Assembly: GCA_964603585.1 (NCBI GenBank)
Contig: CAZRVK010000006.1
Span: 23,650-87,649, forward strand
DNA from: an uncultured Planctomycetales bacterium
Lineage (GTDB): Bacteria; Omnitrophota; Gorgyraeia; Gygaellales; Profunditerraquicolaceae
Direction: 5' to 3'
Length of the DNA: 64,000 bases
The stretch's first letter is position 1. Each line of letters begins with the position of its first letter. The position numbers and the translations under genes were made by a program. The notes under the pieces were generated by a model, which made no database searches, had not been told where the DNA came from, and saw only the letters and a list, made by a program, of their open reading frames with translations. Positions 2,454-50,997 of the stretch are shown here, piece by piece.

Positions 2454-2500
2454 TTTTAATCCGGGAAACTTCACCAATAAGCGTATTGATCGGAGGCATC

Positions 2501-8892: not shown

Positions 8893-9260
8893 GGATAAAA
8901 ATACTGGCGATAATGATCTCAATATTTGTATTTTTCCTTGTGATTGACCTTATCCGCAGGGAAAAACTTACTTTTAAATATGCGGTGGTCTGGATCCTTA
9001 TGTGCCTGGCCGGGGTAATTGGTGCTGTCTATGAAGATATCATATTTAAAAGTGCGAGTTTTTTTGGGTTTGAGCTGGCCAGCAATTTTATATTCTTTTT
9101 GCTTGGGGTATTTTTAGTGGTTTTAAGCCTTATGCTTAGTATTTATATTTGCCAGCAGAACCGGCATCTGGAATCGATCGCCCAGAAAATAGGATTGATG
9201 GAACTGGAATTATCCAAGTTGAATGCTGAACGGGCTCAATCTAATCAGAAGAAAGGTTAA
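8889..9260 (+). CDS. Small membrane protein, DUF2304-like, translationally coupled to preceding GT2
   Basis: 123 aa, two TM helices, ATGA overlap with upstream GT2; such small membrane partners commonly follow Dpm1-like GT2 genes. Confidence 0.4.
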   Translation: MRIKILAIMISIFVFFLVIDLIRREKLTFKYAVVWILMCLAGVIGAVYEDIIFKSASFFGFELASNFIFFLLGVFLVVLSLMLSIYICQQNRHLESIAQKIGLMELELSKLNAERAQSNQKKG

Positions 9261-13647: not shown

Positions 13648-15405
13648 ATGACCCCGGCATCTATTACCAGGATTGTCCGCAATCTGCTTTTGTTGATTAT
13701 ACTCGGAGCGGTTTTGTCGGCTGCGGTGTTAAGTTTCCGTAAAGCTGTCAGCCATCCGTTTCATCTGGATGAAGCCGAAGAGGCGCTTTGCGGGCTCAAA
13801 ATGTCCGAGATCGGGCCGCGCGCTTTCCTTAAAGTCCCCGAAGGCAATATGGATGTGACGCATCCATTGTTGTACACTTTTACACATGCTGCGGTGCAAA
13901 GTATTTTCGGCCCATCTGAATTTCCTTTACGGATGTACGGTGTGTTCCATTTTCTTCTTTCATTAACCCTTTTGTTGCTGATTGTTTATGAAATAACCTC
14001 TTCCTGGGAGGTCCATTTTCGCCATCTTGCCGCAATATCTGCGGGTCTTTTGTATATAGTGAACCCTCTTTTGATACAGCACTCGGTAGTGATCAATGCC
14101 GACAACAATATCCTTGCCAGTGCGATATTACTGTTTATTTATTTTTTTCTGCGGTTTGAGAGGCTTACCGGTAAAGGGTTTTTGTATTCCCGGCTTAAAC
14201 TTGCACTTTTATTTGCACTTTGTATCTGGTCCAAGGAGATGGCGCCGTTAATGCTTATAGCAGGGGTGTTGTTTTACCGGATCCTTTGCCGTTCGTTCAA
14301 ACGGTTCGTTCTGGATCTGGTTATTACTGGGGTAATAGGCATTTTGATCTTTTGGCTGACCTGGTGGATGTATTGTGTGTCGACCGGTACGGATGTCATG
14401 GGCTTTATAAAATTCACGATGATCAATAAATCAAAACTGGCGTTTAGCAGCCGCTATACCAGCGGGATATTCTCCATGTTCTTTTACGGGATGCGCTGGA
14501 ATATTTACTGGGTTTCCGCTCCGTTTCTTATGGCAACAGGCATCTTTTTCCTGGTCAGGCTAAAAAGTATCTTTCATCCGGATAAATTCCATCCGGTAGA
14601 TTTTATTTTTATTACCGCCTCCGCGATCTGGCTGCCTTTTCAGGCTTTTCGGCCAACCATCGACATGGTTAAATACCAGTATCCGAGCTATCCGCTTTTT
14701 ATCGCTGTATTGGCGTGGATGTTTGTTCGTTTTTTGACGAGATCTGGGAAGATAAAGATACAGGAATTCTTGAGTCTAAGGAATACGGCCGTATTTACTG
14801 CGGTTTTTTTTATTTTGCTATTGCATTATTACTTCTTAGGTGATTATTTGCTGGCATTATGGAAGCCTTTATCCCAGCATCTTAACTCGCATTTTATTTT
14901 CTATTATTATGCCCCTTTGTTTATGGTGTTATCGGCTGCGGCTTTTATTTCTAAAAAAAATGATTTGGCGGCAAATCTGGCGGTTTGGCTTATTATTCTT
15001 ATCGTGCCGATAAATGCTGCTTTGGGGCTTAACCAGGCAAAAGCGGATTATCTCACTTTCGAGATATGGCTCAATTATGGCGAGTCAGGGTTAGCTAAAA
15101 CCATTGAATACCTTAAAAATAACGTGCCCGATGGCGCGGTAATTTCTACCCGTGCGGATTTAGAGTATTACCTGGTGCACCGTTACGGGATCAAGATTCC
15201 GCTGAATATAAAGCCGGAAAAGATCTTTCAGGCCCCAGATGATATTTTACGCGCTTTTTTCGCAGAGTCACCGGTGGAATATTTGGTGATCGACAAGATC
15301 TCCATCATGCTGGCGTTTAATCCTCTTGTCCCGGAACTTTTAAACCGGTATTTTGGCCTGCAGCAGCAGTTTGGCGATTTTTTTATCTATAAAAGGAAAG
15401 GTTAA
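13648..15405 (+). CDS. GT-C fold membrane glycosyltransferase (ArnT/PMT-like, GT39/GT83-type)
   Basis: 585 aa, ~11+ TM helices, conserved DE in first extracytoplasmic loop (FHLDEAEE), soluble C-terminal domain. Confidence 0.5.
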   Translation: MTPASITRIVRNLLLLIILGAVLSAAVLSFRKAVSHPFHLDEAEEALCGLKMSEIGPRAFLKVPEGNMDVTHPLLYTFTHAAVQSIFGPSEFPLRMYGVFHFLLSLTLLLLIVYEITSSWEVHFRHLAAISAGLLYIVNPLLIQHSVVINADNNILASAILLFIYFFLRFERLTGKGFLYSRLKLALLFALCIWSKEMAPLMLIAGVLFYRILCRSFKRFVLDLVITGVIGILIFWLTWWMYCVSTGTDVMGFIKFTMINKSKLAFSSRYTSGIFSMFFYGMRWNIYWVSAPFLMATGIFFLVRLKSIFHPDKFHPVDFIFITASAIWLPFQAFRPTIDMVKYQYPSYPLFIAVLAWMFVRFLTRSGKIKIQEFLSLRNTAVFTAVFFILLLHYYFLGDYLLALWKPLSQHLNSHFIFYYYAPLFMVLSAAAFISKKNDLAANLAVWLIILIVPINAALGLNQAKADYLTFEIWLNYGESGLAKTIEYLKNNVPDGAVISTRADLEYYLVHRYGIKIPLNIKPEKIFQAPDDILRAFFAESPVEYLVIDKISIMLAFNPLVPELLNRYFGLQQQFGDFFIYKRKG

Positions 15406-16653
15406 ATGCAGAGTAATATTTTTGCGCGTAATGATGAGGGCTTCAATAAATTAGAGATGGCCTTTATTGGGCTGGCAAGTTTTATATTCGTTTTGCTTTT
15501 AAAGGACATTTTATTTTTTGGCCGGCGGATGTTTTCTCATGATACGATCTGGTTCTTTGGGCTGGCACAGTACTTTTATAATTCGGTTATGCATGGGGTT
15601 TTTCCGTATTGGGATATTTATAATTATTGCGGACAGCCGTTTTATTATAATTTGGGGATCGCCAGGATTATGGAGCCTTCTTCGATGATCTGGACAGGGT
15701 TAGCGAAATTATTCGACTGTTCATTGCTTAGCCTTTACCTGTGGGATTATATTTCGAAAATATTCATTTCTGCCCTGGGTGTTTATCTGGCATTTCGCCA
15801 GACGAATAGATTTGTCTTCAGCAATTTTGTGGTTTTTGCCTCTTTTTTATTTTCGTCTCTTACGATGACGGAATTACGCCAGGGTGGGGTGTTGACCTCA
15901 TTTATTTGGACTCCCTGGATCATGTGGTTTTTCTTTCGCCTGTTTAAAACCTTCGATCTTTACAATATTATTGGCTTATCGCTTTTTGCCGGACTTTCGG
16001 TGGCGAGTTATCAGGCTGGTTATGTGTTTGCCTTTTTTCAGGTATTCATCCTTAGCCTGTTTATTAATCATCGGGATTGGCTGCGCCAGGTATTCTTAAA
16101 CGGTAGAAAGGCCATTCTTTTATTATTTGGCGCCTTGATCATATTCCTGCTTTCGCTTCATGTCTTGGCGGTTTTTATCGAGAAAGACCGGAATGTTCCG
16201 GTTCTGCGCCAAATATTGACTACCCGTTCAAGCAATGATTACAGCGTTTCTTCCGGGGAAAAACCGTTATTACCGGCTGATTTCCTGGGGTTGGTGTCGC
16301 CGCCTTTGGCGGCGAAACTTTGGCAGAAGGAGTGGGTGCGCTGGCTTTCGGAATTCCCACTGTATATCGGTATTGTACCGTTTTTACTTGCTTTGTTCGG
16401 GATATTTTTTTCCCGTTCGGTGTTTCGTCTGAACTTTATGATTACTTTGGGAGTTATCGGGCTTTTGTCTTTGGAATTAAAGTTCTGGATGGGGCCGGTA
16501 GGGGATATACTTTTTCCTTTCTTAAGATATGCCCGGCATATGGGGCTGTTCCAGCCTTTTCTGGTTTTTGTGATTGTATATTTTGTTGGGCAGGGGACGG
16601 ATGTATTGATCCAAAGGTATATCCTAAAGGATAACTCAATTAAACGCCTGTAA
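15406..16653 (+). CDS. Polytopic membrane protein (possible N-terminal part of a YfhO/GT-C-like protein)
   Basis: 415 aa, highly hydrophobic; ends at TAA that is in-frame with next ORF. Confidence 0.45.
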   Translation: MQSNIFARNDEGFNKLEMAFIGLASFIFVLLLKDILFFGRRMFSHDTIWFFGLAQYFYNSVMHGVFPYWDIYNYCGQPFYYNLGIARIMEPSSMIWTGLAKLFDCSLLSLYLWDYISKIFISALGVYLAFRQTNRFVFSNFVVFASFLFSSLTMTELRQGGVLTSFIWTPWIMWFFFRLFKTFDLYNIIGLSLFAGLSVASYQAGYVFAFFQVFILSLFINHRDWLRQVFLNGRKAILLLFGALIIFLLSLHVLAVFIEKDRNVPVLRQILTTRSSNDYSVSSGEKPLLPADFLGLVSPPLAAKLWQKEWVRWLSEFPLYIGIVPFLLALFGIFFSRSVFRLNFMITLGVIGLLSLELKFWMGPVGDILFPFLRYARHMGLFQPFLVFVIVYFVGQGTDVLIQRYILKDNSIKRL

Positions 16654-16656
16654 TCT

Positions 16657-18120
16657 ATGAAAGACGAACAGATATATTTCTATATCTTCTCATATTCTTC
16701 GGCCTTGTATTGGCTTGTGATCGCAACATTGTTTTTTGCCGGCTACTTAGTAAGAAAAGGGTTTAAGAAAATTGCCTGTTTTGTTGTTTTGGCGGTAATC
16801 CTAACGGATCTTTTAGCTTATAACCTGCAGGTTTTGCCTTTTGTAACCGGGCTCCGGACAGGGGTTAATTTTAACCAAAAGCAGTTTGACTGGTCTTTGC
16901 CGGAACACCGCAATGAAAACCCTTTTCTGGATAAACGGTTCCGTTATTTTGCCTCCGGGCTCAATAATGACCATACGGCATTTGACGGTACGGCATTCGA
17001 CCGTTTTTCTGCTGCCGGGAACAGGGTCGCTGATGCGAGTGCAATGCTTAAGCAAATCCGGCTTGGCCAATTTGCCTTGCAGAAAGAAATAGATAATTTA
17101 AGTTTATTTGAGCTTATTGCCTTGGGCCAGGACAGCTATGATGATTGGCCTGGTTCCAAGAAAGAGGCTTTCCTGAACTTTATGGAATTGTTATCCGAAG
17201 ACCTTATGTTTCAGCGTAATTTTTACAAGATATTTCCTTCTGGCGAAGGACTATTATTAGCGGCGCGCAGGTTTTTAGCCGAAGGTTATCTGGATTTGAA
17301 TTCCGGCCTGGCCTGGAATACGAAGAAAGATGCGCTGGCATCCCTTGTCAAGCTGATAGATTTTGATCTGGATATCAGTCAGGAAGGATTAGGCCAGGTG
17401 ATAAAAGGCAACAAACCAGATGAAAAATCCCCGATTCTGGCGTATATCCGCAGCCTGGGGTATTTATACAAATCTACTCCGGCAAGCGAGTATTTTATGA
17501 CGCTTTGGGCCAGATACCGTATACCTTCAGCAAATAGTTTCGTAAGGCTTAAGGATTTTGAGAGGATTTACGCAGTTTATACCCGGTCGCTTACTGACCT
17601 GAAGATGACCAGGCAAAACCTGCGGATAAAGAGTGACTTTGGGATTACTGCGCCGGTCATCAATTTTTTTACTTCTGCATATTTTACAGGTCAAGATACA
17701 TATGTCAATGACCTGGAGCAGGACAGGATCACGGATAATCGGCTTTATCTGGAAGGAAAAGATCCCTCAATAAAAACCGAAAACAATCCCAGGAAAGACC
17801 AAAGCGGAAGTTTTTCTTATCTGGTCAAGAAATACACCCCGAATTATTTAAAATTGTTATGTTCATCCAAAACCCCAGGGTTTTTATATTATAGCGATAG
17901 TTTTGATAAATACTGGAAGGCTAAGGTGGATGGAAAAAGAGTAACGATTTACAAGGCAAACGGCCTTTTTAAGGCGGTTAATTTGGCCTCGGGAGAGCAC
18001 ACGGTGGAGTTTATCTACGACCCGGGGTTCTTTCGTTTTTCGATTTGGAGCTATTATTTAACCATATTGGCAGCTGTTGTTTTCTTAACCCTAAGGAGTA
18101 AAATATGGCAAAAGTCCTGA
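16657..18120 (+). CDS. Membrane-anchored protein with large extracytoplasmic domain and C-terminal TM helix (possible C-terminal part of YfhO/GT-C-like protein)
   Basis: N-terminal TM helices, ~400 aa soluble region, terminal TM helix; same frame as 15406..16653. Confidence 0.45.
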   Translation: MKDEQIYFYIFSYSSALYWLVIATLFFAGYLVRKGFKKIACFVVLAVILTDLLAYNLQVLPFVTGLRTGVNFNQKQFDWSLPEHRNENPFLDKRFRYFASGLNNDHTAFDGTAFDRFSAAGNRVADASAMLKQIRLGQFALQKEIDNLSLFELIALGQDSYDDWPGSKKEAFLNFMELLSEDLMFQRNFYKIFPSGEGLLLAARRFLAEGYLDLNSGLAWNTKKDALASLVKLIDFDLDISQEGLGQVIKGNKPDEKSPILAYIRSLGYLYKSTPASEYFMTLWARYRIPSANSFVRLKDFERIYAVYTRSLTDLKMTRQNLRIKSDFGITAPVINFFTSAYFTGQDTYVNDLEQDRITDNRLYLEGKDPSIKTENNPRKDQSGSFSYLVKKYTPNYLKLLCSSKTPGFLYYSDSFDKYWKAKVDGKRVTIYKANGLFKAVNLASGEHTVEFIYDPGFFRFSIWSYYLTILAAVVFLTLRSKIWQKS

Positions 18121-19028
18121 TTATCAAACTGGGATATTCGGAAACGCTGGATAAGGAGATATCCACTACCACCAGCCTTGGAGATGTTTTACGCACTACG
18201 GTGGTCTTGAATTTCTTTAAGAACGATCAGGTAAGCTGGCTGGTAGATGAGAAGGCGTTTCCATTATTGGATGGGAACCCTTATATTGACCGGATACTGG
18301 TTTATAGCCTGACTACGGTTTTACAACTCGAGAAGGAACGGTTTGATACCGTGATAAACCTGGAAAAGGTCCCGGGGATTTGTGCCTTGGCAGATTCGAT
18401 AAGCGCCTGGAGAAGGTTTGGTTTTCGCTTCAATGAAATAACCGGAAAGGCCCAGAGTTATGACGGGGCTGAAGAAGTCCTTGCCTTATGCCTTAGTGAC
18501 GACGAAAAACGTAAAAACCGCAAATTTTGGCAGGAGGCGCTTGCGGATATGATCGGAGAATCCTGGAACGGGCAGAAATATATATTAGGGTACCGGCCTA
18601 AAAGCAGGATCAAATATGATATCGGTTTTAACTGGGCGGTGGGGGATAAATGGTCGAATAAGGCCTGGCCTAAAGAATATTGGAAAAAGCTGGAAAATAT
18701 CCTAAAAAACAGGTATTCTATATCCTGGCAGCAAGGTTTAAATAATCTATATGAGTATATGGATTGGATTAATTCCTGCCGTCTTATCATTACCAATGAC
18801 AGCCTGGGGATGCATTTAGGGATCGCGCTTAGCCGTCATCTGATCGCGTTATTTGGGCCAAGTTCTTCCAAAGAAGTTTACCTTTACGATAAAGGCAGGA
18901 TCTTAGTCCCGGCAAAAGGGTGTGAACGCATTCCTTGCCTGCAAAGCGAATGCTCGAAATCGCGGCCTTGTATGGAATATATAACTCCCGAACGGGTAAA
19001 AAAAGAAGTATTAAGGATATTAAAATAA
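18105..19028 (+). CDS. GT9 family glycosyltransferase (ADP-heptose:LPS heptosyltransferase-like)
   Basis: N-terminal KVLIIKLG...LGDVLRTT motif characteristic of heptosyltransferases; 307 aa. Confidence 0.6.
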   Translation: MAKVLIIKLGYSETLDKEISTTTSLGDVLRTTVVLNFFKNDQVSWLVDEKAFPLLDGNPYIDRILVYSLTTVLQLEKERFDTVINLEKVPGICALADSISAWRRFGFRFNEITGKAQSYDGAEEVLALCLSDDEKRKNRKFWQEALADMIGESWNGQKYILGYRPKSRIKYDIGFNWAVGDKWSNKAWPKEYWKKLENILKNRYSISWQQGLNNLYEYMDWINSCRLIITNDSLGMHLGIALSRHLIALFGPSSSKEVYLYDKGRILVPAKGCERIPCLQSECSKSRPCMEYITPERVKKEVLRILK

Positions 19029-20093
19029 ATGGATGATTTCCGGATCGATTCACAAAAAATAACCCATCATATCGGGGCGTTAAACAAATGGCTTAAAACG
19101 GGAGATGTTTATCCGATTTACGCGGAGATTTCTCCTTCTGGCACCTGCAACCACCGGTGCATATTTTGCGCTTTGGATTACCTGGAGTATAAGCCAAAAT
19201 TCATCGATACTCCGGCGGTAAAAAGATTTATTGCCGATGCCGCCAAGAAAGGTTTGCGCAGTATCATGTTTGCAGGAGAGGGGGAACCTCTTTTACATCC
19301 TGGTTTGATGGAGATGGTATCTTTTGCCCGCACTCATCTCGTGGATACGGCAATTACTACTAACGGGGTGTTGCTGGATAAGAATAACCTGTCGGTCATA
19401 TTGAATGATGCGAGTTGGCTTAGGATAAGTTTAAATGCGGCAACCCCTGAAAGTTATGCCCGTATCCATAGGGCGCGCCCGGAGGATTTCTTGCGAGTTT
19501 TGCATAATCTTCGTCTGGCAGTTTCCATGCGGCGCGCCAAGAATTACCAGTGTACTATCGGGGCCCAGATCCTTTTATTGGGTCAGAATATCCCGGATGC
19601 GGGGATACTGGCAAAGCTATGCCGCCAGATCGGGTTGGATTATCTGATCATCAAGCCTTATTCACAGCATCCGTTCAGTAAGAACCGTTTAAGTAAAACC
19701 GTGGATTACCGCAAACTTTTGATCCTGGAAAAGGAATTAGCGAAATTCAGCACTAAGGATTTTAAAGTGATCTTCAGACGGCATACAATGCAGAAGATAA
19801 TCTCCGGTCGTAATTACAAACAGTGTTATGCGCTTCCCTTTTGGACATATATCAGCGCTAATGCTGATGTCTATGCCTGCAGTGCTTTTTTAGGGGACAA
19901 ACGTTTTTGCCTCGGCAACATTACCCGGGAACGTTTCTTTCGGATATGGAATGGCAGAAGGCGCAAAAAACTCCTTAGGATGATGGCAAACACCTGGGAT
20001 ATAAATAATTGCCGGCAGGTTTGCCGGATGGATGAGATAAACCGTTATTTATGGGAGTTAAAGAACCCTCCCAGGCATGTCAATTTCATTTAA
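19029..20093 (+). CDS. Radical SAM enzyme (paralog 1) with conserved C-terminal WxLKxPPxHxNF motif
   Basis: CNHRCIFC (CxxxCxxC), GEGEP; C-terminal Cys cluster and LWELKNPPRHVNFI tail shared with 23403..24479. Confidence 0.7.
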   Translation: MDDFRIDSQKITHHIGALNKWLKTGDVYPIYAEISPSGTCNHRCIFCALDYLEYKPKFIDTPAVKRFIADAAKKGLRSIMFAGEGEPLLHPGLMEMVSFARTHLVDTAITTNGVLLDKNNLSVILNDASWLRISLNAATPESYARIHRARPEDFLRVLHNLRLAVSMRRAKNYQCTIGAQILLLGQNIPDAGILAKLCRQIGLDYLIIKPYSQHPFSKNRLSKTVDYRKLLILEKELAKFSTKDFKVIFRRHTMQKIISGRNYKQCYALPFWTYISANADVYACSAFLGDKRFCLGNITRERFFRIWNGRRRKKLLRMMANTWDINNCRQVCRMDEINRYLWELKNPPRHVNFI

Positions 20094-20862
20094 TAAAATG
20101 GCTGAAAAGAAATTTTTTCTGGCAGTAATCATGCCGGCGCTCAATGAAGAAAAAAACATCCGCCTGGCGGTGGGCAATGTTTTAAAGGCTTTTGACGATT
20201 TTCATATCGAAGGCGAAATCATTGTGGTAAATGATGGTTCAAAAGATAAAACCGGGGAGGTCGTCGAGTCGATGATGGCGGAGGAGCCAAGGATAAAAAT
20301 GATTAGGCATGAAAGGCCTTTGGGGATCGGGGCTTCTTTCTGGGATGGGGTGGATAATACCCAGGCGGATATCGTTGTAACTTTACCGGGGGATAATGAA
20401 AATGACCCCTGGGAGATATTCCGTTACTATCCTTTGCTTGAGCATGTGGATATCGTGATCCCCTTTATTTTCAATAAGGAGGCGCGTTCTTTGTTCAGGA
20501 ACGGCGTTTCTTATCTTTACCGGTTTATTATCAATACTACGTTTTTAGTCAATTTCAATTATACCAATGGCACGATCCTTTTCCGCCGCTTACTGCTAAA
20601 AGAACTGGGCCATCGCAGTCTAAGTTTTTTCTTCCAGACCGATATTTTGATCCGAACGGTAAAAAAAGGGTATTTGTTTGCCGAAGTGCCTTATCGGCTG
20701 GGGATTAGAAAAGACGGGGTTTCCAAGGCATTGTCTTTTCCGTCTTTTTTGCAAGTAGTAAAAGGGTATGTGCGCCTGGTAAAAGATTATTATTTTCAGA
20801 AAAATAACGGTTCTTCGACTATTTTTAGCAGTGGTTCGCAAACTGCATTACGCAGGGGTTAG
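20077..20862 (+). CDS. GT2 polyprenyl-phosphate sugar transferase (Dpm1-like)
   Basis: VIMPALNEE...VVNDGSKDKT GT-A motifs. Confidence 0.7.
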   Translation: MSISFNKMAEKKFFLAVIMPALNEEKNIRLAVGNVLKAFDDFHIEGEIIVVNDGSKDKTGEVVESMMAEEPRIKMIRHERPLGIGASFWDGVDNTQADIVVTLPGDNENDPWEIFRYYPLLEHVDIVIPFIFNKEARSLFRNGVSYLYRFIINTTFLVNFNYTNGTILFRRLLLKELGHRSLSFFFQTDILIRTVKKGYLFAEVPYRLGIRKDGVSKALSFPSFLQVVKGYVRLVKDYYFQKNNGSSTIFSSGSQTALRRG

Positions 20863-20866
20863 CAGT

Positions 20867-21694
20867 ATGTTTAGACGAAAAAAAGATGAACTTGAGAAAT
20901 ATGCCAGCCAGGCCAGAAGATTGATTATTGAAGTGGCTTGTAAGTCAAGAACTGCGCATGTGGGTTCGGCTCTGTCCTGTGTCGATATTTTAACCGCGCT
21001 TTATTTTCATGTATTGGATATAAATCCCCGCGCCTGGAAAAAAAGGGATATTTTGGTCTTAAGTAAAGGGCATGCTGCACTGGCATTGTATTCGATCCTG
21101 ACGGTTAAAGGGTTAATGAAGAAGGATGCCCTTTTGGGTTATTTGCAGGATAAGGGCAGTTTGCCGGCACATTTGGACAAGGTTACGAATAAATGGATCG
21201 AGGTATCCTGCGGTTCATTAGGTCATGGGTTCAATATGGCTTTAGGCCTGGCATATGGTTACAAGCTCAAAGGTATTAAACGCCGGGTAGTCGCTGTTAT
21301 TGGCGATGGAGAAACGCAAGAAGGGTCGGTTTGGGAAGGCGCATTGTTTGCCAGCCATCTTGGCATAGATAATTTTACCGCAGTGATCGATTATAATAAT
21401 TTACAGGGTTATGGCCGTCCGAGGGAGATCTGCCATTATGAGCCGGTAGCCGGTAAATGGAGGGCTTTTGGCTGGGAGGTAGATAAGGTCAATGGGCATG
21501 ATCATTATGCCCTGATTTCGGCCTTGGAGAAAAAACGTATTCAAGGCAAGCCAAGGGTGATTATTGCCGATACCACGAAAGGCAAGGGGGTGGATTTTAT
21601 GGAGGATCAGCTTAAATGGCATTATTTCATTGTTACCGATGAGCTGAAAGAAAAGGCGATGCAGCAATTATGCGCACCCCGGGGGATACGGTGA
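20867..21694 (+). CDS. Transketolase N-terminal (TPP-binding) subunit
   Basis: HVGSALSCVDILTALYF, GH, GSLGHG, VIGDGE motifs of split transketolase N-section; ATG 20867 just after upstream stop with AGGGG RBS. Confidence 0.8.
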   Translation: MFRRKKDELEKYASQARRLIIEVACKSRTAHVGSALSCVDILTALYFHVLDINPRAWKKRDILVLSKGHAALALYSILTVKGLMKKDALLGYLQDKGSLPAHLDKVTNKWIEVSCGSLGHGFNMALGLAYGYKLKGIKRRVVAVIGDGETQEGSVWEGALFASHLGIDNFTAVIDYNNLQGYGRPREICHYEPVAGKWRAFGWEVDKVNGHDHYALISALEKKRIQGKPRVIIADTTKGKGVDFMEDQLKWHYFIVTDELKEKAMQQLCAPRGIR

Positions 21695-22593
21695 GAAACA
21701 GTTTAGTCGATAAAATATACCAGCATGCCTGTAAAAACAGGAAAATATTCCTGATTACCGGAGATGCGGGGTTCGGGGTGCTGGATGAATTTAAAAAACG
21801 GTTTGGCCGGCGTTTCTTGAACCTGGGGATCGCTGAACAGAATATGATCGGGTTTGCCTCCGGGCTTTCCCTTGCAGGATACAAGGTTTTTGTTTATAAT
21901 ATTGTCCCGTTTGTTTTATACCGTTGTTTTGAACAGGTAAGAAACGATATTTGTTATCAGGATCTGCCGGTCACCTTGGTGGGTATTGGCAGCGGTGTTT
22001 CCTATGCCCCGGGCGGGGTAACGCATTATTCGGTTGAGGATGTTTCCCTGGCAAGGGCCTTGCCTAACCTTGTTATACTTTCTCCGGCTGATCCACAGGA
22101 GGCGCAGGCCTGTGTGGAATATGCGCTGAAAAGTAAATCACCTGTGTATATCCGTATCGCGAAAAATGGTGAACCAGCGATACATAAAAAAAAGATAAAA
22201 AGTGTCATTGAGCCGATTGTGGTAGGCGGCGGAGAACGAGTTGCGGTTTTATTCCATGGTTCTGTATCCTCTGATGTGATGCGTGCTGTGTCAGGCCTGG
22301 CGAGAAAACCGAGAGTGATTTCAGTCCCCATGCTCCAGCCTTTGAACTTTGCTGCGCTTAAGGCCTCCTTAAAAGGGATAGGTACCATTATTACGGTAGA
22401 GGAACATTTCTTGGAAGGTGGACTGGGAAGTATTATCGCGGAATGGATAGTCAGGGACAGGCTTAATTTTCGCCTAAAGAAACTGGGGATAAAGAATGAG
22501 TTTATCCATGCCATTCGCGATAATCCCGGGATGAGGCAGTTGTATGGAATTTCCAGCAGGCAGATTGCGGCAGTAATACGCGGGTCATTTTAA
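21670..22593 (+). CDS. Transketolase C-terminal (pyrimidine-binding) subunit
   Basis: FLNLGIAEQNMIGFASGLSLAG, DICYQDLPVTLVG motifs; overlaps N-subunit by ~25 nt. Confidence 0.75.
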   Translation: MRTPGDTVRNSLVDKIYQHACKNRKIFLITGDAGFGVLDEFKKRFGRRFLNLGIAEQNMIGFASGLSLAGYKVFVYNIVPFVLYRCFEQVRNDICYQDLPVTLVGIGSGVSYAPGGVTHYSVEDVSLARALPNLVILSPADPQEAQACVEYALKSKSPVYIRIAKNGEPAIHKKKIKSVIEPIVVGGGERVAVLFHGSVSSDVMRAVSGLARKPRVISVPMLQPLNFAALKASLKGIGTIITVEEHFLEGGLGSIIAEWIVRDRLNFRLKKLGIKNEFIHAIRDNPGMRQLYGISSRQIAAVIRGSF

Positions 22594-22613
22594 TAGGTAA
22601 AAAAGGGGTGAAA

Positions 22614-23384
22614 ATGTCAGATATCTCATTGCGCCATGAAAATGAAAAGTTGCAGAAAGAAGCGTTGGAGGCATTATTTCAAAGCAGTGGTATGAGCGAT
22701 TTTGAACGGTTCAGGAATTTTACGGTTTTTACCCCTCGGTATAATCTGGCGCGGTTTCTGCTGCATTATGAACTGTTTAAAAAGGTCTATGAGCTTCCGG
22801 GTGTGATCGTGGATTTAGGAGTATATCAGGGGGCATCGACGTTTACCTGGGCAAAACTTTGCGAGATCTTTTGCCCTACGGATGTGCGCAAAGTGGTTTA
22901 TGCCTTTGATACGTTTGCAGGTTTTCCCTCTTTAGCCAAGGAGGATGGCGGGCAGAGTAAGAAGGATGACCGTGTTGTTGGAGGATTTTATACGGGTGAA
23001 GCTATTGAGCGGGATCTGAAGCTGGCCCAGGAAGCGATGCGCCCGGATAAGCATATCCGGCATATCAACCGTATAGAATTTATAAAAGGTGATGCCATAA
23101 AAACCATACCTGCATTTGTCAAAGAAAAAGGCGCAGGGTTAAAGGTTGCTTTATTAAATATAGATTTCGATCTTTACGAGCCGACGAAGGTTGCTTTGGA
23201 AAACTTTGTACCTTTGATGGTACGAGGTGGGATAATTATTCTTGATGAATATGCACTGGAAACATTTGGCGGAGAGACCAAGGCTATAGACGAATATTTT
23301 AAAAAGGCGTTCGGCCAGGTGCCTAAAATCAAGAAATTCGGCTGGCACAGTGTTCCTTCGGGATATATTGAGGTTGATTGGTAA
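22614..23384 (+). CDS. TylF/MycF-family class I SAM-dependent (sugar) O-methyltransferase
   Basis: VDLGVYQGAST nucleotide-binding motif, DTFAGFP, NIDFDLYEPT typical of macrocin-O-methyltransferase family. Confidence 0.6.
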   Translation: MSDISLRHENEKLQKEALEALFQSSGMSDFERFRNFTVFTPRYNLARFLLHYELFKKVYELPGVIVDLGVYQGASTFTWAKLCEIFCPTDVRKVVYAFDTFAGFPSLAKEDGGQSKKDDRVVGGFYTGEAIERDLKLAQEAMRPDKHIRHINRIEFIKGDAIKTIPAFVKEKGAGLKVALLNIDFDLYEPTKVALENFVPLMVRGGIIILDEYALETFGGETKAIDEYFKKAFGQVPKIKKFGWHSVPSGYIEVDW

Positions 23385-23402
23385 GAAGAAAGGGCAGTAT
23401 TC

Positions 23403-24479
23403 ATGGATAAATATATGATGGAAGGCCATAAGCTTTTTTGGCATTTAGATCGGCTCCGGGCTTGGCAGAAGGAAGAGAAAATAGTTCCTTTGCATATGGA
23501 TATCGGCATATCTAAAGGATGCACTATCGGGTGTGTTTATTGTTACGGCGTTTTTCAGGGCAGGATCGGCCCGCAAGGCAAATTCATCCCTAAAGATGCG
23601 CTTTTACGGTTCATGAATGATGCGGCAGATTTAGGAGTCAAGGCGATCTCTATAACCGGAGAAGCCGAACCGACCATGAACCCCCACCTTTATGATGCGG
23701 TGGTAGTAGGCGCTAAAGCAGGTCTTGATTTAGGTTTAGCTACCTGGGGAGGTATGATCCAAGAAGACAGGATCACCGATCTGGCAAATAATCTGACCTG
23801 GATCAGGTTTAATATTAGTGCCGCTGCACCCGACAGCTACCAGAAGATCCACCGCACGACTAAAGAAAATTTCCATAAGGTCATCTCTAATATTGAGAAG
23901 TTAGTGCGTATTAAACGGCAAAATGATTTGAACATTACCATCGGCCTGCAAATGGTGACTATGCCATGGTATGCCGCGGAGTCCTTAAAGCTGGCAAAGT
24001 TAGGTAAAGATCTCGGGGTGGATTATCTGGAGATCAAACATTGTAGTGAGACTACTTCCGGGGACCTGGGGGTAAGGTTTGAAGAGTATCATAAGGTCGC
24101 GGATATCCTGAAAGAGGCAGAGAAGTATTCCGGCGGGCAATATGATGTGATCGTCAGGTGGAAGAAAATATTGCAAGGCAAGAAACGTAATTATGACCGT
24201 TGTTATTGTGCCGGTAATTTTATGCTTCGGATGTCAGGGGATGGTTCGGTTTATCCTTGTGCCCAGTTCTTTGACCTAAGAAGCGATGAATTTAAGGTCG
24301 GCAATATTACTGAACAGTCATTTAAGGATATTTTATATGGAGCGCGTTATTCGGAAGTCTTAAAACGGATACAACAGCTGGATGTGCATAATGAATGCTG
24401 CAGCGGATGCAAGGAGGATTCGATCAATGAATTCCTTTGGACGCTTAAACATCCTCCGCAACATTTGAATTTTGTTTAA
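23403..24479 (+). CDS. Radical SAM enzyme (paralog 2) with conserved C-terminal WxLKxPPxHxNF motif
   Basis: CTIGCVYC (CxxxCxxC), GEAEP; C-terminal Cys cluster and LWTLKHPPQHLNFV tail. Confidence 0.7.
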   Translation: MDKYMMEGHKLFWHLDRLRAWQKEEKIVPLHMDIGISKGCTIGCVYCYGVFQGRIGPQGKFIPKDALLRFMNDAADLGVKAISITGEAEPTMNPHLYDAVVVGAKAGLDLGLATWGGMIQEDRITDLANNLTWIRFNISAAAPDSYQKIHRTTKENFHKVISNIEKLVRIKRQNDLNITIGLQMVTMPWYAAESLKLAKLGKDLGVDYLEIKHCSETTSGDLGVRFEEYHKVADILKEAEKYSGGQYDVIVRWKKILQGKKRNYDRCYCAGNFMLRMSGDGSVYPCAQFFDLRSDEFKVGNITEQSFKDILYGARYSEVLKRIQQLDVHNECCSGCKEDSINEFLWTLKHPPQHLNFV

Positions 24480-24485
24480 AATCCA

Positions 24486-24983
24486 ATGAAAATATTATTT
24501 GCCGGGTCTTGTTTATTCATTCTTAGTTGTTTGATACATGTTATAATCTGGAAAATACGCCTGCCAAAAGGGCAGACTAAGACCTTAGCAAAGATATTTG
24601 CCCTGGTTTTGACCGCAGGGATAATATTTTTCGCCGTAGATACTGGCCGCGGTTTCAGTTGGCTGGATATTGTGCATATTTCTATATTCTATGCCGTGCT
24701 TGCTTTGGTGTACTTGAATACCTATTCGGCTATTGAAGTGGACAGTCCGACATTAGTAATTGTTTCGCTTATCCATAATGCGCAAAAAAAAGGTTTGTTA
24801 AAAATAGAATTGGAGAATGCCTTAAGTGATGATGTCTTGATCGCTCCGCGCGTAAAAGACCTGGAGGATGCCAGGCTTGTATCTTTTGATGGCGTTAGAT
24901 ATAAGCTTACTCCGACCGGGTTAAGGTTTGTGAGTATTTTTATCTTTTGGCGGAAATTATTGAATGCCGGATTAGGGGGGTAA
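24486..24983 (+). CDS. Membrane protein with C-terminal soluble domain (paralog A)
   Basis: 3 predicted TM helices then DGVRYKLTPTGLRFVSIFIFWRKLL; similar to next ORF. Confidence 0.4.
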   Translation: MKILFAGSCLFILSCLIHVIIWKIRLPKGQTKTLAKIFALVLTAGIIFFAVDTGRGFSWLDIVHISIFYAVLALVYLNTYSAIEVDSPTLVIVSLIHNAQKKGLLKIELENALSDDVLIAPRVKDLEDARLVSFDGVRYKLTPTGLRFVSIFIFWRKLLNAGLGG

Positions 24984-24989
24984 TTTCAT

Positions 24990-25514
24990 TTGAAACCGGA
25001 ATATTCCCAGGTCTTAGTCCCGTTTATTGGGTTGTTCTTTAATATATTCACGCAATTAGCATCATTGCGTTTATTCCCCTGGATAGGCCTGTTAAAGTCA
25101 GAATTTTGCGGCTTTATCCTGGGGATGCTGGTGTTTTTATCCATCCAATCGGCATTTATCTTCTGCAGGCGATCTTGTATAGATAGCCCTTTAGGGATTT
25201 TTATCGTGAACTCGATCATCTATTTATCCCTGGCGTACATGTATTTTAATTTTATAAATCTCGGGGAAACTGCACGCCGGATACGCCTGTTGAGTGAGTT
25301 ATACAATTGCCGTGTCGGTTTGACTTATCCGGAGATTATCCAGCGTTATAATGCAAAAGAAGTTTTAAACCGCAGGGTTTTGCGTTTGTTGAATAATGGA
25401 CAGATAGTGTATAGGGATGGCAGGTATTTTACCGCCAATCCTTCTGTTTTAATCATTTCTCAAGGTATATTTTGGATGAAGCAGTTTTTGTTAGGCAGAA
25501 AGCTTTCAAGGTGA
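24990..25514 (+). CDS. Membrane protein with C-terminal soluble domain (paralog B)
   Basis: TTG start; TM helices then DGRYFTANPSVLIISQGIFWMKQFLL matching previous ORF. Confidence 0.35.
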   Translation: MKPEYSQVLVPFIGLFFNIFTQLASLRLFPWIGLLKSEFCGFILGMLVFLSIQSAFIFCRRSCIDSPLGIFIVNSIIYLSLAYMYFNFINLGETARRIRLLSELYNCRVGLTYPEIIQRYNAKEVLNRRVLRLLNNGQIVYRDGRYFTANPSVLIISQGIFWMKQFLLGRKLSR

Positions 25515-25518
25515 AGTC

Positions 25519-26205
25519 ATGTCAGCCGAAAACATAGTTTTAGCGGTTAAATGTGCCCCGGAAGAAAGGCTGTTGTCTTATGCCACGCGTGCGGGGATTC
25601 CGGCGGTTGAGTTGTACCTTTGCGGCGAGACTCTTAATCAAGCTGATGAGGTAGCCGCCTTATGTAAGGATTTTCATTTTCGCTATAGTATGCATGCCCC
25701 AAACGATGCTTATGAGCCAAAGAAACTTTCTTTTTTAGCCGGGGCAATTTCTGCCGAGGTGGTAGTGGCGCATAATATCTTCTGGGAAGATGAATGGAAA
25801 GAGATGATCTCCTGTTTTAAGGGGATCCCGGTAAAGCTTTGTGTAGAGAATATTACAACCGCGCACGAACCTTTGAAATTCATGCGCCGTTATGGCCTGG
25901 GATGCTGCCTGGACCTGGAGCATTTGCAGCTTGAGTGCGCCGGAGTTTATGAGGATGAATTCCTGCGTTTAATGAAAATCGCCTCATATGTTCATATGAC
26001 GGGTTATAAATACCCCTCGGAACTTTGGCATACCCATATACATCATTTACCCCGGCATAATGTTTATCTTCTTGACCTTTTATTGAAGGCAGGGTATTCC
26101 GGGTTTCTGGTGAGTGAAGCGAAAGTGGAAATGCAAAGTTATGATGAATTTAGCAAATTGCATGCTTTCTTTGAGTCATGGAAAGCCAAACATAAGGAAG
26201 GATAA
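25519..26205 (+). CDS. Xylose-isomerase-like TIM-barrel protein (sugar phosphate isomerase/epimerase family)
   Basis: Conserved His/Glu/Asp pattern (HAP, VENI, LDLEH, HMTG) of AP-endonuclease-2/xylose isomerase-like fold; weak. Confidence 0.4.
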   Translation: MSAENIVLAVKCAPEERLLSYATRAGIPAVELYLCGETLNQADEVAALCKDFHFRYSMHAPNDAYEPKKLSFLAGAISAEVVVAHNIFWEDEWKEMISCFKGIPVKLCVENITTAHEPLKFMRRYGLGCCLDLEHLQLECAGVYEDEFLRLMKIASYVHMTGYKYPSELWHTHIHHLPRHNVYLLDLLLKAGYSGFLVSEAKVEMQSYDEFSKLHAFFESWKAKHKEG

Positions 26206-26207
26206 GA

Positions 26208-27056
26208 TTGAAACCTATTAATATCCCGGATACTTATAATTATATCGGAGTTTTTATCACCTTTGCCTGTAATTTGAGGTGCAGTTATTGTATTAATAAT
26301 TTTGAAGGCAATTTGGAAAACCGCAAGATGATCTCCGGTGAAGATTGGGCCAGGTTTTTAAACCGGATTAATTCGCGGGATGATCTGCCGGTTACCTTGC
26401 AGGGCGGAGAACCGAGCTTGCATAAGGATTTTATTTATATTATCAATAATATCAAGCCCGATCTGCACATAGATATCCTGACAAACCTTAGTTTTGACAT
26501 TGATGAATTCATGAGGCAGGTTGACCCCAAGAGGCTTGTGCGCAATTCCCCTTATGCCTGTATCCGCGTGAGTTATCATCCGGAAACCATGGATTTAAAG
26601 CAGACTATGGAGAAGGTTTTGGTCATGATGGATAAGGGTTTTAGTATCGGGATTTGGAGTGTCATGTATCCGGATTACCGTGAGCGTATTTTTGAAGCGC
26701 AGGATATCTGCCGGCAAAAGGGGATAGATTTCCGGCTGAAGGAATTTTTAGGGGAATATAACGGTAAACTGTATGGCACATATAAATATAAGGATGCCTG
26801 CAGTAAGAAAACGGCCAAAACCGTGTCCTGTAAGGCAAGCGAGCTGCTGATTGACCCTGCGGGAACGGTTTTTCGTTGTCATCATGATGTCTATAGCAAT
26901 AAAAGCCCGATCGGCAGCCTTAGTGACGGTGATTTTCAGATCGAAGATGAGTATCGAGATTGCCAGTATTATGGTTTTTGTAATCCCTGTGATATTAAGG
27001 TTAAGACCAATCGGCTGCAGGAATATGGGCATACTTCGGTAGATATAAAGTTTTAG
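26208..27056 (+). CDS. Radical SAM enzyme with C-terminal Cys-rich auxiliary-cluster region
   Basis: TTG start with AAGGAAGGA RBS; CNLRCSYC, QGGEP; C-terminal C...CHHD...CQYYGFCNPC. Confidence 0.6.
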   Translation: MKPINIPDTYNYIGVFITFACNLRCSYCINNFEGNLENRKMISGEDWARFLNRINSRDDLPVTLQGGEPSLHKDFIYIINNIKPDLHIDILTNLSFDIDEFMRQVDPKRLVRNSPYACIRVSYHPETMDLKQTMEKVLVMMDKGFSIGIWSVMYPDYRERIFEAQDICRQKGIDFRLKEFLGEYNGKLYGTYKYKDACSKKTAKTVSCKASELLIDPAGTVFRCHHDVYSNKSPIGSLSDGDFQIEDEYRDCQYYGFCNPCDIKVKTNRLQEYGHTSVDIKF

Positions 27057-27099: not shown

Positions 27100-27885
27100 A
27101 TGAAGACAGATATATTTTATTTTTCCGGTACGGGTAATTCCTTAAAAGTAGCCAGGGATATTCTGCAGCAGGTAAAAGATGGACAGGTTATAGCTATCCC
27201 TAAAGTGATATCTCAAGATTCGATAACTACGAATGCCGATAGGGTAGGGATCGTTTTTCCGGTATATATGTTTGGGGCACCTTTGATTGTAGTGGATTTT
27301 CTTAGGAAACTTAAACTTAACCAGGGGCAGTATATTTTTGCCGTAGTAACCTATGGAGGTTTGGCTGGAGGCACGTTGCAGCAGATTGAGCGCGAGCTTG
27401 CCAGGAAGGGGTTAAAACTGTCAGCCGGATTTGGCATAGCCATGCCAGGCAATTATACCCCGCTTTATGGCGCTAAACCATTAGCGGTGCAAAACAAGAT
27501 GTTTGAAAGAGAATATTCAAAGGTTAAGGCTATTTCCGATATTATCGAGGCCGGAAGGCCGTATCCTGTAGAAAAAGGGAATTTTCTTATAAACCTGATA
27601 TTTTCCGGATTATTGTATAACAGTTGTTCATCATCGATACCAAAGATGGACAGATCATTTTGGGTAGAAAATACCTGTACCGGCTGTCAGGTATGCGTAA
27701 AAGTCTGCCCGGTGGGAAATATTAAGCTTGCAGACGCAAAACCTGTCTGGCTGGGCAGGTGCCAGCAATGCCTGGCTTGTCTGCACTGGTGTCCCGAGGA
27801 AGCAATTCAGTTCGGCAGGAAAACGATTGGACGAAAACGTTACCGGATGCCGCAAATACAATTAAATGATCTTTTAAAAGATTGA
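27100..27885 (+). CDS. Flavodoxin-like domain fused to 2x[4Fe-4S] ferredoxin domain
   Basis: N-terminal FYFSGTGNS flavodoxin motif; C-terminal CTGCQVCVKVCP and CQQCLACLHWCP. Confidence 0.65.
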   Translation: MKTDIFYFSGTGNSLKVARDILQQVKDGQVIAIPKVISQDSITTNADRVGIVFPVYMFGAPLIVVDFLRKLKLNQGQYIFAVVTYGGLAGGTLQQIERELARKGLKLSAGFGIAMPGNYTPLYGAKPLAVQNKMFEREYSKVKAISDIIEAGRPYPVEKGNFLINLIFSGLLYNSCSSSIPKMDRSFWVENTCTGCQVCVKVCPVGNIKLADAKPVWLGRCQQCLACLHWCPEEAIQFGRKTIGRKRYRMPQIQLNDLLKD

Positions 27886-28929: not shown

Positions 28930-29991
28930 ATGGATAATCCAGAATTCGACCGGACAGACAGGTTAAATACCCGCCAGAGGCTGAAAAACGAGAAGCCAGC
29001 CGTATATGAGAAGTTTGTTCGGCTTGACCAAAGGCCAAACCAGGGGGGGCCTTTTAGCCCGGTGATCGAGATCGCTTACCGCTATGATTGTAACCTTCGT
29101 TGCCGGCATTGTTTTGCCAGCCGGTTTGAGAAAAAGAAACGCAGCCTTTCCTTGGATGACCTAAGGGGATTATCTTTACAAGCTGGCCAGATGGGGGTAT
29201 ATCAATTCATTCTGCAAGGAGGGGAACCGCTCTTTTGGCCCGATTTAGATGCGGTGGTTAGTGCTATCAATCCAAAAGAATTTTATTTAGGGTTAGTTAC
29301 TAATGCGTCATTATTGAATAAAGAAAAGATCATTCACCTTCGGGAGATAGGCATCGATAAGATTGTGATCAGCCTGGATTCTTATGATATGCTTCAGTAC
29401 GAACAGAATCGTAACCGTCCGGGATTATTCAATCATACGCTTGACATGCTGATTCTGGCTAAAAGTGCCGGGTTGCGGGTTGTCATTAATACCCTGCTTA
29501 CAAAAGAAAATGTCAGGTCCGCAAAGCTCCTGGAATTGATCGAGTTTGCCAAGAGGCATTCATTCTTTGTTTATACTAATTTCGCGACTCCTATCGGCAG
29601 TTGGCAGGGGCGCTATGACCTGTTGCTTGACGAGGATGATGCAAAGTATATTTATGATCTAAGCCTAAAGCATAAAGTAGTAAAGCGGGATATTTTTCCG
29701 TATATGGGGCAGAAAGTGGGATGTCCGGCGATCAGGTCGGTAGTATATATTACCCAATACGGTGATGTGCTTCCCTGCCCCTTCATACATATTTCTATCG
29801 GCAATATATTCGAATCTGATTTACCCCGGATCATTGAACAGGGTATGAGGCTGAAATGCTTTAAAGAACAGTCTGGGGTATGCCTGGCTTGTGAAGACCG
29901 CGATTTTATCAGGCAGAAGATCTCCAGGGTATATGATAGATCTTCTCCTGTCCCGATGGATGAGATCTTCGATAAGGATGAATTTTGTTGA
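28930..29991 (+). CDS. Radical SAM / SPASM-domain enzyme
   Basis: CNLRCRHC, QGGEP; C-terminal CPAIRS...CPF...CLAC SPASM-type Cys spacing. Confidence 0.7.
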   Translation: MDNPEFDRTDRLNTRQRLKNEKPAVYEKFVRLDQRPNQGGPFSPVIEIAYRYDCNLRCRHCFASRFEKKKRSLSLDDLRGLSLQAGQMGVYQFILQGGEPLFWPDLDAVVSAINPKEFYLGLVTNASLLNKEKIIHLREIGIDKIVISLDSYDMLQYEQNRNRPGLFNHTLDMLILAKSAGLRVVINTLLTKENVRSAKLLELIEFAKRHSFFVYTNFATPIGSWQGRYDLLLDEDDAKYIYDLSLKHKVVKRDIFPYMGQKVGCPAIRSVVYITQYGDVLPCPFIHISIGNIFESDLPRIIEQGMRLKCFKEQSGVCLACEDRDFIRQKISRVYDRSSPVPMDEIFDKDEFC

Positions 29992-29995
29992 TCCT

Positions 29996-47301: not shown

Positions 47302-47339
47302 AATGACGGAACCACAAAGCTTTATTACGGAATTACAAT

Positions 47340-50981: not shown

Positions 50982-50997
50982 TTTGGAGGGATGATTT

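Follow-up and report, generated by a model that had tools for sequence, protein, structure and literature searches.

A 64-kb stretch of DNA from an uncultured bacterium of the Omnitrophota (contig CAZRVK010000006.1; the whole stretch is referred to here as the window) encodes two radical S-adenosylmethionine (SAM) proteins, open reading frames (ORFs) A and B, that bracket glycosyltransferase, split transketolase and methyltransferase genes. Sequence comparisons give good support to the view that A and B are a real, conserved and uncharacterised pair of radical SAM subfamilies, that they carry a hallmark C-terminal tail and that they belong to a widespread sugar-tailoring cassette coupled to an enzyme dependent on thiamine pyrophosphate (TPP). 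The product of the cassette is probably a modified cell-surface sugar, most likely derived from a heptose. Homology, family size, tail conservation, synteny and domain fusions are well supported, whereas the chemistry by which the enzymes could relay a sugar from one to the next is put forward below as a hypothesis.

The paired radical SAM proteins and their common tail

A preliminary description of this region had paired ORFs A and B on the basis of a shared architecture. The coordinates are confirmed, the proteins are 354 and 358 amino acids (aa) long, and they are homologous from end to end, with 32% full-length identity (E 5e-66 by BLASTP). All of the motifs then listed are present in both proteins: (i) CxxxCxxC, which reads CNHRCIFC in A and CTIGCVYC in B and places cysteines at positions 40, 44 and 47 of each; (ii) GE(G/A)EP, within AGEGEPLL and TGEAEPTM; (iii) GNIT, within LGNITRERF and VGNITEQSF and (iv) the near-identical C-terminal tails. 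Both proteins exceed the gathering scores of the Radical_SAM (PF04055; 64 bits for A and 56.2 for B, against 29.5) and SPASM domains (PF13186; 31.7 and 35.7 bits, against 21.5), and B also exceeds the cut-off of the TIGR04085 SPASM model (28.2 bits, against 27). Invariant columns were taken from alignments of 34 and 78 family members and are given in A numbering. The SAM-binding 'GGE'-type motif is represented by G83, E84 and E86, invariant across the 78 sequences, and an N-terminal K10/H14 motif is likewise invariant in the family alignments. AlphaFold models of A and B have identical topology (predicted local distance difference test, pLDDT, 95.2 and 93.1), and 13 positions are fixed differently in the A-type and B-type subfamilies.

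The C-terminal region had also been described as Cys-rich. Conserved cysteines do occur there, but only four of them (C266, C284, C328 and C332) are invariant in the family C-terminal to the core, and the seven-Cys motif of a full SPASM domain is absent. A beta-hairpin is predicted between C266 and C284 of A (E272-275, E280-282), and positions 256–334 of the family profile align with residues 158–237 of BtrN. Because the four cysteines surround the predicted hairpin and align with this segment of BtrN, they indicate a single, fully Cys-ligated auxiliary cluster in a Twitch-like domain rather than the two clusters of a SPASM domain. The family spacing, C-x17-C-x43-C-x3-C, resembles the Twitch motif of BtrN. 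In the favoured reading, a large uncharacterised radical SAM clade has A and B as its two founding subfamilies, each with one predicted SAM-cleaving [4Fe-4S] cluster.

The tails (LWELKNPPRHVNFI in A and LWTLKHPPQHLNFV in B) each extend to the last residue before the stop codon and share the terminus N-x-[FY]-L-W-x-L-K-x-P-P-x-H-x-N-F-[IV], a pattern with just two occurrences in the six-frame translation of the window, in A and in B. In both subfamilies, residues N338, L341, W342, H350, N352 and F353 show conservation of 90% or more. Of 148 diverse representatives, 115 terminate in HxNF[IVL] and most of the others have a close variant of it. Most B-type orthologues carry an insert of ~10 residues between FLWxLK and PxHxNF that the window B lacks, and a third, more distant subfamily of 327–348 aa ends in EH[LI]xFV. 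The nine residues past the last helix are predicted to be ordered, with pLDDT values of ~91 in A (75 at the end) and 92–95 in B. The C-terminal 105 aa alone gave no significant match in the PDB, and a profile of the last 62 residues, run against a set of 5.8 billion proteins in a search that was not sensitive, returned only 41 short fragments of the same family among 63 candidates and no other architecture. The earlier description did not recognise this tail from any characterised radical SAM family, and this has stood up: no NCBIfam equivalog comes near its cut-off, neither A nor B as a single sequence has a close relative in the PDB, the tail is found in none of the PDB sequence matches, and our searches of NCBIfam, the PDB and the literature found no curated family, solved structure or paper that covers the A/B family. 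A likely function for the tail, by analogy with that at the C-terminus of MoaA, is to close or gate the active site. Two family members (P0324 and P0337) contain inteins, and in one of them a LAGLIDADG homing endonuclease domain is inserted close to the radical SAM motif.

The preliminary description spoke of a duplicated enzyme, and if this is read as a local or recent duplication it does not hold. Window A is 46–51% identical to A-type proteins of 354/355 aa from Scalindua and other Omnitrophota, and window B is 47–69% identical to B-type proteins (358/361 aa in Scalindua), while A and B are ~30% identical to one another in every genome compared. Since orthologues from different phyla are more similar than the two proteins of one genome, this identity pattern marks A and B as ancient paralogues, forming two orthologous groups that travel together, and a recent or local tandem duplication is rejected. 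Homologue searches returned 3588 matches for A and 2308 for B, the latter including proteins of Scalindua (69%), Brocadiaceae and Nanoarchaeota. An exhaustive profile search gave 1,933 clusters at 50% identity (E <= 1e-30), and at least 567 species genomes carry the family in a scan of one genome per species. The loci analysed below come from the best 80 of these carriers, all of them named genomes, which cover ~14 phylum-level lineages. They include bacteria of the Omnitrophota, Planctomycetota, Thermodesulfobacteriota, Nitrospirota, Elusimicrobia, Bacillota, Lentisphaeria, Auribacterota, Firestonebacteria, Oligoflexia and Arcobacteraceae, as well as Helicobacter cinaedi, and the archaeal groups Methanoperedens, Hydrothermarchaeota and Nanoarchaeia.

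Within this distribution the window B is 69–80% identical to planctomycete (Scalindua-type) B proteins, whereas identity between the window A and the Scalindua A reaches only 49%. The TylF-like methyltransferase gene of the window is shared with one Scalindua locus (L004) and is rare elsewhere. These two observations hint at lateral exchange of a transketolase–TylF–B sub-block between Omnitrophota and Planctomycetota.

Conserved gene neighbourhood and domain fusions

Locus counts were obtained by tblastn mapping and look-ups, with denominators that allow for contig ends. In the recurrent gene order, A is preceded either by a block of GSU2086-family, small nucleotidyltransferase, HldE-like and GmhA-like genes or by a glycosyltransferase family 9 (GT9) gene, and is followed by the TPP enzyme, a glycosyltransferase family 2 (GT2) gene, B and a block consisting of a TIM-barrel gene, two small genes (sm1 and sm2) and a short radical SAM gene. 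In 57 of 66 loci a gene for a TPP enzyme begins no more than 3.5 kb downstream of A (35 of the transketolase type and 21 of the pyruvate dehydrogenase (PDH) E1 alpha/beta type), and in 54 of 74 it immediately adjoins A (<400 bp). The distance between A and B is no greater than 8 kb in 38 of 61 loci, and a GT2 orthologue is found within 8 kb downstream of A in the same proportion (38/61).

HldE-like or GmhA-like genes precede A in 37 of 61 orthologous loci, GT9 orthologues (50–71% identity) stand directly upstream of A in 14 of the 61 loci with enough upstream sequence, and one or the other is found in 51/61; the window has a GT9-type locus. Where a SIS gene is present, A always follows it. The upstream genes score below the cut-offs of the heptose kinase/adenylyltransferase and GmhA models but above that of the GSU2086 family, and the HldE-like protein has its domains in reversed order, with the transferase domain N-terminal. 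In Geobacter sulfurreducens, GSU2086 is placed between hldE and gmhA (PMC5585712).

An RmlD-like keto-sugar reductase gene lies between transketolase and B in several loci. Homologues of sm1 and sm2 follow B in 16 and 12 of the 80 loci, respectively, and both are present in Scalindua L004; TIM-barrel homologues follow B in five. Seventeen of the 80 loci have an orthologue (~60% identity) of the short radical SAM protein, in most cases at the cassette's 3' end, although in H. cinaedi the gene lies directly upstream of A. The TylF homologue was found in one of the 80 loci, in addition to Scalindua L004. The bracketed genes named in the preliminary description (GT2, split transketolase and TylF-like methyltransferase) each have their Pfam match, and the TPP enzyme and the GT2 recur with A and B, but the methyltransferase falls outside the conserved core. 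The core further includes the heptose-nucleotide genes or GT9, and its TPP enzyme can be of the E1 type instead of the transketolase type.

Two cultured organisms carry the family. H. cinaedi CCUG 18818 has A, B, a member of the third type, two transketolase sets, a short-chain dehydrogenase/reductase (SDR) and methyltransferases. Plasmid pDCAR1 of Solidesulfovibrio carbinolicus DSM 3852 has the order PfkB–hypothetical–SIS–A, a split transketolase ~8 kb away, and methyltransferases and CMP-sugar synthetases nearby.

Domain fusions connect A with the same kinds of enzyme. A-type proteins, all 40–49% identical to the window A, are fused to a SIS/GmhA-like domain (P0250), to a nucleotidyltransferase-like domain in three separate clusters (P0256, P0268 and P0296), to a methyltransferase (P0258) and to a complete TPP enzyme of the acetolactate synthase (ALS)/YerE type (P0260). 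From the classes of neighbouring gene and from the P0260 fusion, the role of partner to A is filled by three unrelated TPP folds, the transketolase, E1 and ALS/YerE types, as assigned by homology. Synteny and fusions together strongly reinforce the earlier reading of A and B as members of a sugar pathway. The window itself contains an ALS/YerE-type enzyme (TPP_enzyme_N/M/C; 657..2453), 17 kb upstream of the cassette, that is 35% identical to the TPP domain of P0260 over ~600 aa (E 1e-136); beside it (2486..4000, 4602..5489 and 5520..6863) are genes for a NeuB-like synthase that carries a cupin domain, for an SDR and for a DegT aminotransferase.

A possible radical SAM–thiamine relay and its alternatives

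We propose that A, the TPP enzyme and B act in relay on a nucleotide-heptose-type sugar, A making a carbonyl, the TPP enzyme adding a two-carbon unit and B carrying out a second radical step, and we give this scheme roughly an even chance of being correct. The nucleotide-activated heptose-type sugar would be made by GmhA-like and HldE-like enzymes, which in this genome would be encoded outside the window. A would take a hydrogen atom from a carbinol carbon of the sugar and pass an electron to its auxiliary cluster, thereby oxidising the sugar to a carbonyl either directly or after an elimination. Hydrogen abstraction with electron transfer to an auxiliary cluster is the way in which BtrN, DesII and anSME work. 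The TPP enzyme would then add a two-carbon acyl-anion equivalent to this carbonyl, giving a C2-branched or chain-extended sugar. With the N-terminal and tail motifs that it has in common with A, B could grip the same nucleotide handle and perform the second radical step, after which the TylF-like methyltransferase may decorate the sugar, and GT2 and GT9 may forward it towards a surface glycan. The GT2 might load it onto polyprenyl phosphate for the neighbouring YfhO-like GT-C membrane proteins. It is plausible, as first suggested, that A and B act on two related sugar intermediates.

Several features of the loci are consistent with such a relay. TPP enzymes that transfer two carbons require an aldehyde or ketone as acceptor, and the usual nucleoside diphosphate (NDP)-sugar 4,6-dehydratase is generally missing from cassette loci. 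A is a natural candidate for an anaerobic carbonyl-maker, being of the Twitch type with a ligated auxiliary cluster and a DesII/BtrN-like architecture. The RmlD-like reductase encoded between the TPP enzyme and B fits a keto intermediate, and the combination of GT2, GT9 and neighbouring YfhO-like membrane proteins suggests delivery to a surface glycan.

The simplest alternative is that the split transketolase only supplies sedoheptulose-7-phosphate, A and B being independent tailoring enzymes (radical epimerases, deoxygenases or dehydratases) between which nothing is handed on. Synthesis of sedoheptulose-7-phosphate is the canonical role of transketolase, and the N-terminal half of the window enzyme is clearly transketolase-like (227.5 bits to NF004559, over model positions 12–282 of 627; the full-length cut-off is 488). 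In three loci (L087–L089) a transaldolase gene and a GmhB-like HAD phosphatase gene also flank the cassette, beside GmhA-like and HldE-like genes, as would fit such precursor supply. The PDH-E1 alpha/beta-type enzymes of 21 of the 66 loci, on the other hand, are unable to make sedoheptulose-7-phosphate, an ALS/YerE-type enzyme is fused to A in one case, the TPP gene keeps within 400 bp of A in most loci, and GT9-type loci, the window included, retain the TPP enzyme in the absence of heptose-synthesis genes. The three TPP folds have in common the delivery of a C2 acyl anion to a carbonyl, which argues for a role beyond precursor supply. We consider this explanation improbable.

A second alternative concerns the point at which A and B act, which could be before activation, on heptose phosphates, or after transfer, on a sugar linked to polyprenyl phosphate or bound in a glycan. 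The invariable position of A behind the SIS gene and the single fusion that links A with a GmhA-like SIS domain, whose substrate is a sugar phosphate, would be expected of the first possibility, and the polyprenyl-phosphate-glycosyltransferase-like GT2 encoded between the TPP enzyme and B in many loci would be expected of the second. A fusion may reflect gene adjacency alone, however; A is joined to a nucleotidyltransferase-like domain in three independent fusion clusters, and the closest folds act on nucleotide- or nucleoside-linked sugars. To these substrates, taken together, we assign the same low likelihood as to mere precursor supply.

Some observations weigh against the proposed relay itself, the arrangement of L087–L089 among them. 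No HldE-like or GmhA-like gene is present in the 64-kb window, where the link to heptose depends on orthology and a GT9 whose own scores fall short of the NCBIfam cut-offs. At L090, A, transketolase and B stand among hexose-type genes (NTP-transferase, dehydratase-like SDR and DegT), so that the sugar may not always be a heptose. B is not found within 8 kb of A in 23 of 61 loci, and the ALS-type fusion P0260 is known from one single 4.4-kb contig.

Two further explanations take A and B out of sugar metabolism. Most SPASM enzymes are peptide or protein maturases, and A and B could in principle be sactipeptide or ranthipeptide synthases or anSME-like proteins. Curated models for maturases of peptides made by the ribosome and modified post-translationally (PqqE, SkfB, PapB, SCIFF, AlbA and others) give at most 46 bits against cut-offs of 265–850. 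There is no adjacent small ORF, the abutting cassette genes leave no space for a precursor gene, and there is neither a peptidase nor an exporter. In ~14 phylum-level lineages the neighbouring genes and fused domains are those of sugar enzymes, and the conserved auxiliary cysteines are only four. Such a function is very improbable. A role in metallocofactor or nucleotide modification (tungsten-cofactor maturase, MoaA-like or viperin-like) is, if anything, still harder to credit. The top NCBIfam match of both proteins is the tungsten-cofactor maturase TIGR04317, MoaA and viperin are found among the sequence and fold matches, and the PADLOC pVip models match the radical SAM core. The scores for A and B are 83.9 and 73.4 bits against 380 for TIGR04317, 55.5 and 42.2 against 284 for MoaA (TIGR02666), and 54.7 and 41.4 against 180 for anti-phage viperin (NF038283), and the pVip match is limited to the N-terminal core (residues 39–179). 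No aldehyde oxidoreductase, molybdenum cofactor or defence genes are nearby, and the four-Cys auxiliary cluster differs from the open three-Cys site of MoaA.

Returning to the relay, a more specific form can be offered only tentatively, as a possibility on the unlikely side. A, in place of an NAD-dependent dehydratase, would make a carbonyl anaerobically on a nucleotide-heptose, an enzyme of any of the three TPP classes would carboligate (for example, heptose plus C2 to give a C9 sugar), B would finish the product, perhaps by cyclisation or deoxygenation, and the tail would plug the active site, coupling substrate binding to SAM cleavage; this would constitute a new route to higher-carbon or C2-branched sugars, spread over many phyla. 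If the relay is true, A and B would constitute a new functional family in a superfamily with many unassigned members and, to our knowledge, would be the first instance in sugar biosynthesis in which a radical SAM enzyme supplies a thiamine-dependent carboligase. The relay would also imply a surface sugar common to Omnitrophota, anammox Planctomycetota, sulfate reducers, Nitrospirota, Elusimicrobia, some archaea and the pathogen H. cinaedi. As the family is large, tightly syntenic and present in cultured strains, the question is directly testable.

The cassette in its window and among known systems

The forward strand of the window is a long gene array to which A and B both belong (Table 1). 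The cassette genes abut or overlap, and the TAA stop of GT9 directly precedes the ATG of A (translational coupling). All three transketolase domains (PF00456, PF02779 and PF02780) exceed their Pfam cut-offs and are spread over the two ORFs of 20831..22593; the top NCBIfam matches of the C-terminal half are dxs (127.7 bits) and transketolase (124.4 bits), both below cut-off. The GT2 matches the NCBIfam models ArnC, PpgS, AglJ and GpgS, again below cut-off in every case. Neither sm1 nor sm2 has a Pfam or NCBIfam match; the two are weak paralogues (28% identity over 93 aa, E 4e-4) and could possibly serve as a flippase or regulator.

Table 1. Features of the A/B cassette, in window coordinates
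Feature	Position	Strand	Support
GT9 (heptosyltransferase-like) glycosyltransferase	18105..19028	+	PF01075 47.6 bits; NCBIfam heptosyltransferase I/II/III all below cut-off
ORF A, radical SAM/Twitch-like (SPASM-type), 354 aa, A-type orthologous group	19029..20093	+	
A CxxxCxxC (C40, C44, C47), predicted SAM-binding [4Fe-4S] cluster site	19146..19169	+	Columns invariant in 34- and 78-sequence alignments
A auxiliary-cluster region, four invariant Cys (C266, C284, C328, C332)	19824..20024	+	Alignments
A C-terminal helix end and tail, N338...L341 W342...P-P-x-H350-x-N352-F353-I354-COOH	20040..20090	+	Alignments; pLDDT
GT2, soluble, Dpm1/ArnC/GpgS-like	20077..20862	+	PF00535 74.5 bits; conserved cassette member
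Split TPP enzyme, N-terminal TPP-binding half, transketolase/DXS-like	20831..21694	+	PF00456 103 bits; PF13292 49.5 bits
Split TPP enzyme, pyrimidine-binding and C-terminal half	21670..22593	+	PF02779 96 bits; PF02780 45.6 bits
TylF-like SAM-dependent methyltransferase, accessory	22608..23384	+	PF05711 44.7 bits
ORF B, radical SAM/Twitch-like, 358 aa, B-type orthologous group	23403..24479	+	Pfam; AlphaFold2 model
B tail, LWTLKHPPQHLNFV-COOH	24435..24476	+	P352, H354, N356 and F357 invariant (B-first alignment)
sm1 (165 aa) and sm2 (174 aa), small membrane proteins, co-conserved accessory	24486..25514	+	
Xylose-isomerase-like TIM-barrel protein, accessory	25519..26205	+	PF01261 23.9 bits, below cut-off
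Third, short radical SAM protein, 282 aa, conserved cassette member	26208..27056	+	PF04055 39.6 bits

A and B are part of a wider array of seven radical SAM genes within 23 kb (9223..10371, 19029..20093, 23403..24479, 26208..27056, 28930..29991, 29891..31045 and 31042..32547), which includes one B12-binding protein and two further SPASM proteins without the tail and is interleaved with methyltransferase and GT2 genes. In the middle of the array, 27100..27885 encodes a flavodoxin-like domain fused to a 4Fe-4S ferredoxin domain, plausibly a dedicated electron donor for the radical SAM enzymes. Genes for a CbiM/CbiQ/ABC cobalt energy-coupling factor transporter, ThyX and glycine cleavage lie at 46264..48898 and 49147..54160, and there may be a connection between the cobalt importer and the radical SAM gene that is B12-dependent.

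Directly upstream of GT9, three large membrane proteins are encoded (13648..18120), one of them with a YfhO-like C-terminus. Their homologues accompany the cassette in L036, and the three could be GT-C transferases drawing on a lipid-linked sugar. In the vicinity of the cassette there are repeatedly NeuB-family synthases and CMP-sugar synthetases (CTP_transf_3, PseF-like), as in Scalindua L005 and S. carbinolicus L093, and the window has its own NeuB-like gene at 2486..4000; a link between the cassette and ulosonic-acid-type sugars is possible. A TMEM175-type potassium channel homologue and a DAHP_synth_1 (KdsA-like) gene are located downstream of the glycan genes (34799..35443 and 36062..37090). 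Almost every ORF of 150 aa or more lies on the forward strand, and GC skew is positive throughout the window (0.09–0.22). The window has no tRNA genes, and nothing else pointing to a mobile element was seen.

With a profile of 78 sequences, the top PDB match is CteB (6.6e-16), followed by MoaA, BlsE and DesII. The closest folds are those of DesII and BlsE, both sugar-acting radical SAM enzymes. DesII, the TDP-4-amino-4,6-dideoxy-D-glucose deaminase/dehydrogenase of desosamine biosynthesis, is 16–19% identical to A and B, has an N-terminus longer by ~100 residues and lacks both a paired paralogue and a TPP partner; with 37.3 (A) and 28.5 bits (B) against the 450 of TIGR04426, the resemblance is structural only. 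BlsE, the cytosylglucuronate decarboxylase of blasticidin S biosynthesis, is 14–16% identical, catalyses a decarboxylation and also lacks a TPP partner. BtrN, the Twitch dehydrogenase of butirosin biosynthesis, is the enzyme to which the four-Cys region aligns. BtrN and anSME, a SPASM alcohol/thiol oxidase, use the auxiliary cluster as electron sink in oxidising an alcohol to a carbonyl, and we propose this chemistry for A.

That a terminal tail can be functional in an auxiliary-cluster radical SAM enzyme has a precedent in MoaA, where the carboxylate of the C-terminal GG tail enters the active site and gates SAM cleavage (PMC12625886). The analogy has its bounds. The MoaA tail ends in GG rather than H-x-N-F-[IV], it is flexible and modelled with low confidence whereas the A/B tail is predicted to be ordered, and substrate and cluster ligation differ too. 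If the analogy is sound, A and B would provide the second system, after MoaA, in which a C-terminal tail controls radical initiation.

On the side of the sugar, literature searches that combined radical SAM enzymes with transketolase, heptose, nucleotide or branched-chain sugars, polysaccharide or the Kuenenia surface layer (S-layer) returned nothing relevant; a paper on the Kuenenia S-layer glycan describes a 174-Da unit without assigned identity and gives no link to genes. The neighbours of A recall the ADP-heptose pathway (GmhA, HldE and GmhB) with its GT9 enzymes. GmhA-like, HldE-like, GSU2086-family and GT9-like proteins are the commonest upstream neighbours of A, but the cassette relatives of that pathway all score below the equivalog cut-offs, and of these only the GT9 is present in the window.

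The nearest chemical counterparts of the proposed relay are pathways in which a TPP-dependent enzyme adds two carbons to an NDP-keto-sugar: YerE in yersiniose, AviB1/AviB2 in avilamycin and AlmDI/AlmDII in aldgarose biosynthesis. YerE is of the ALS type and AviB and AlmD are of the PDH-E1 alpha/beta type, and enzymes of these same classes adjoin A or are fused to it. The cassette differs from these systems in its heptose-like sugar context and in having the transketolase type as the commonest partner. In the known pathways the keto sugar is produced by an NDP-hexose 4,6-dehydratase, a position that in the proposed scheme would be taken by the radical SAM protein A.

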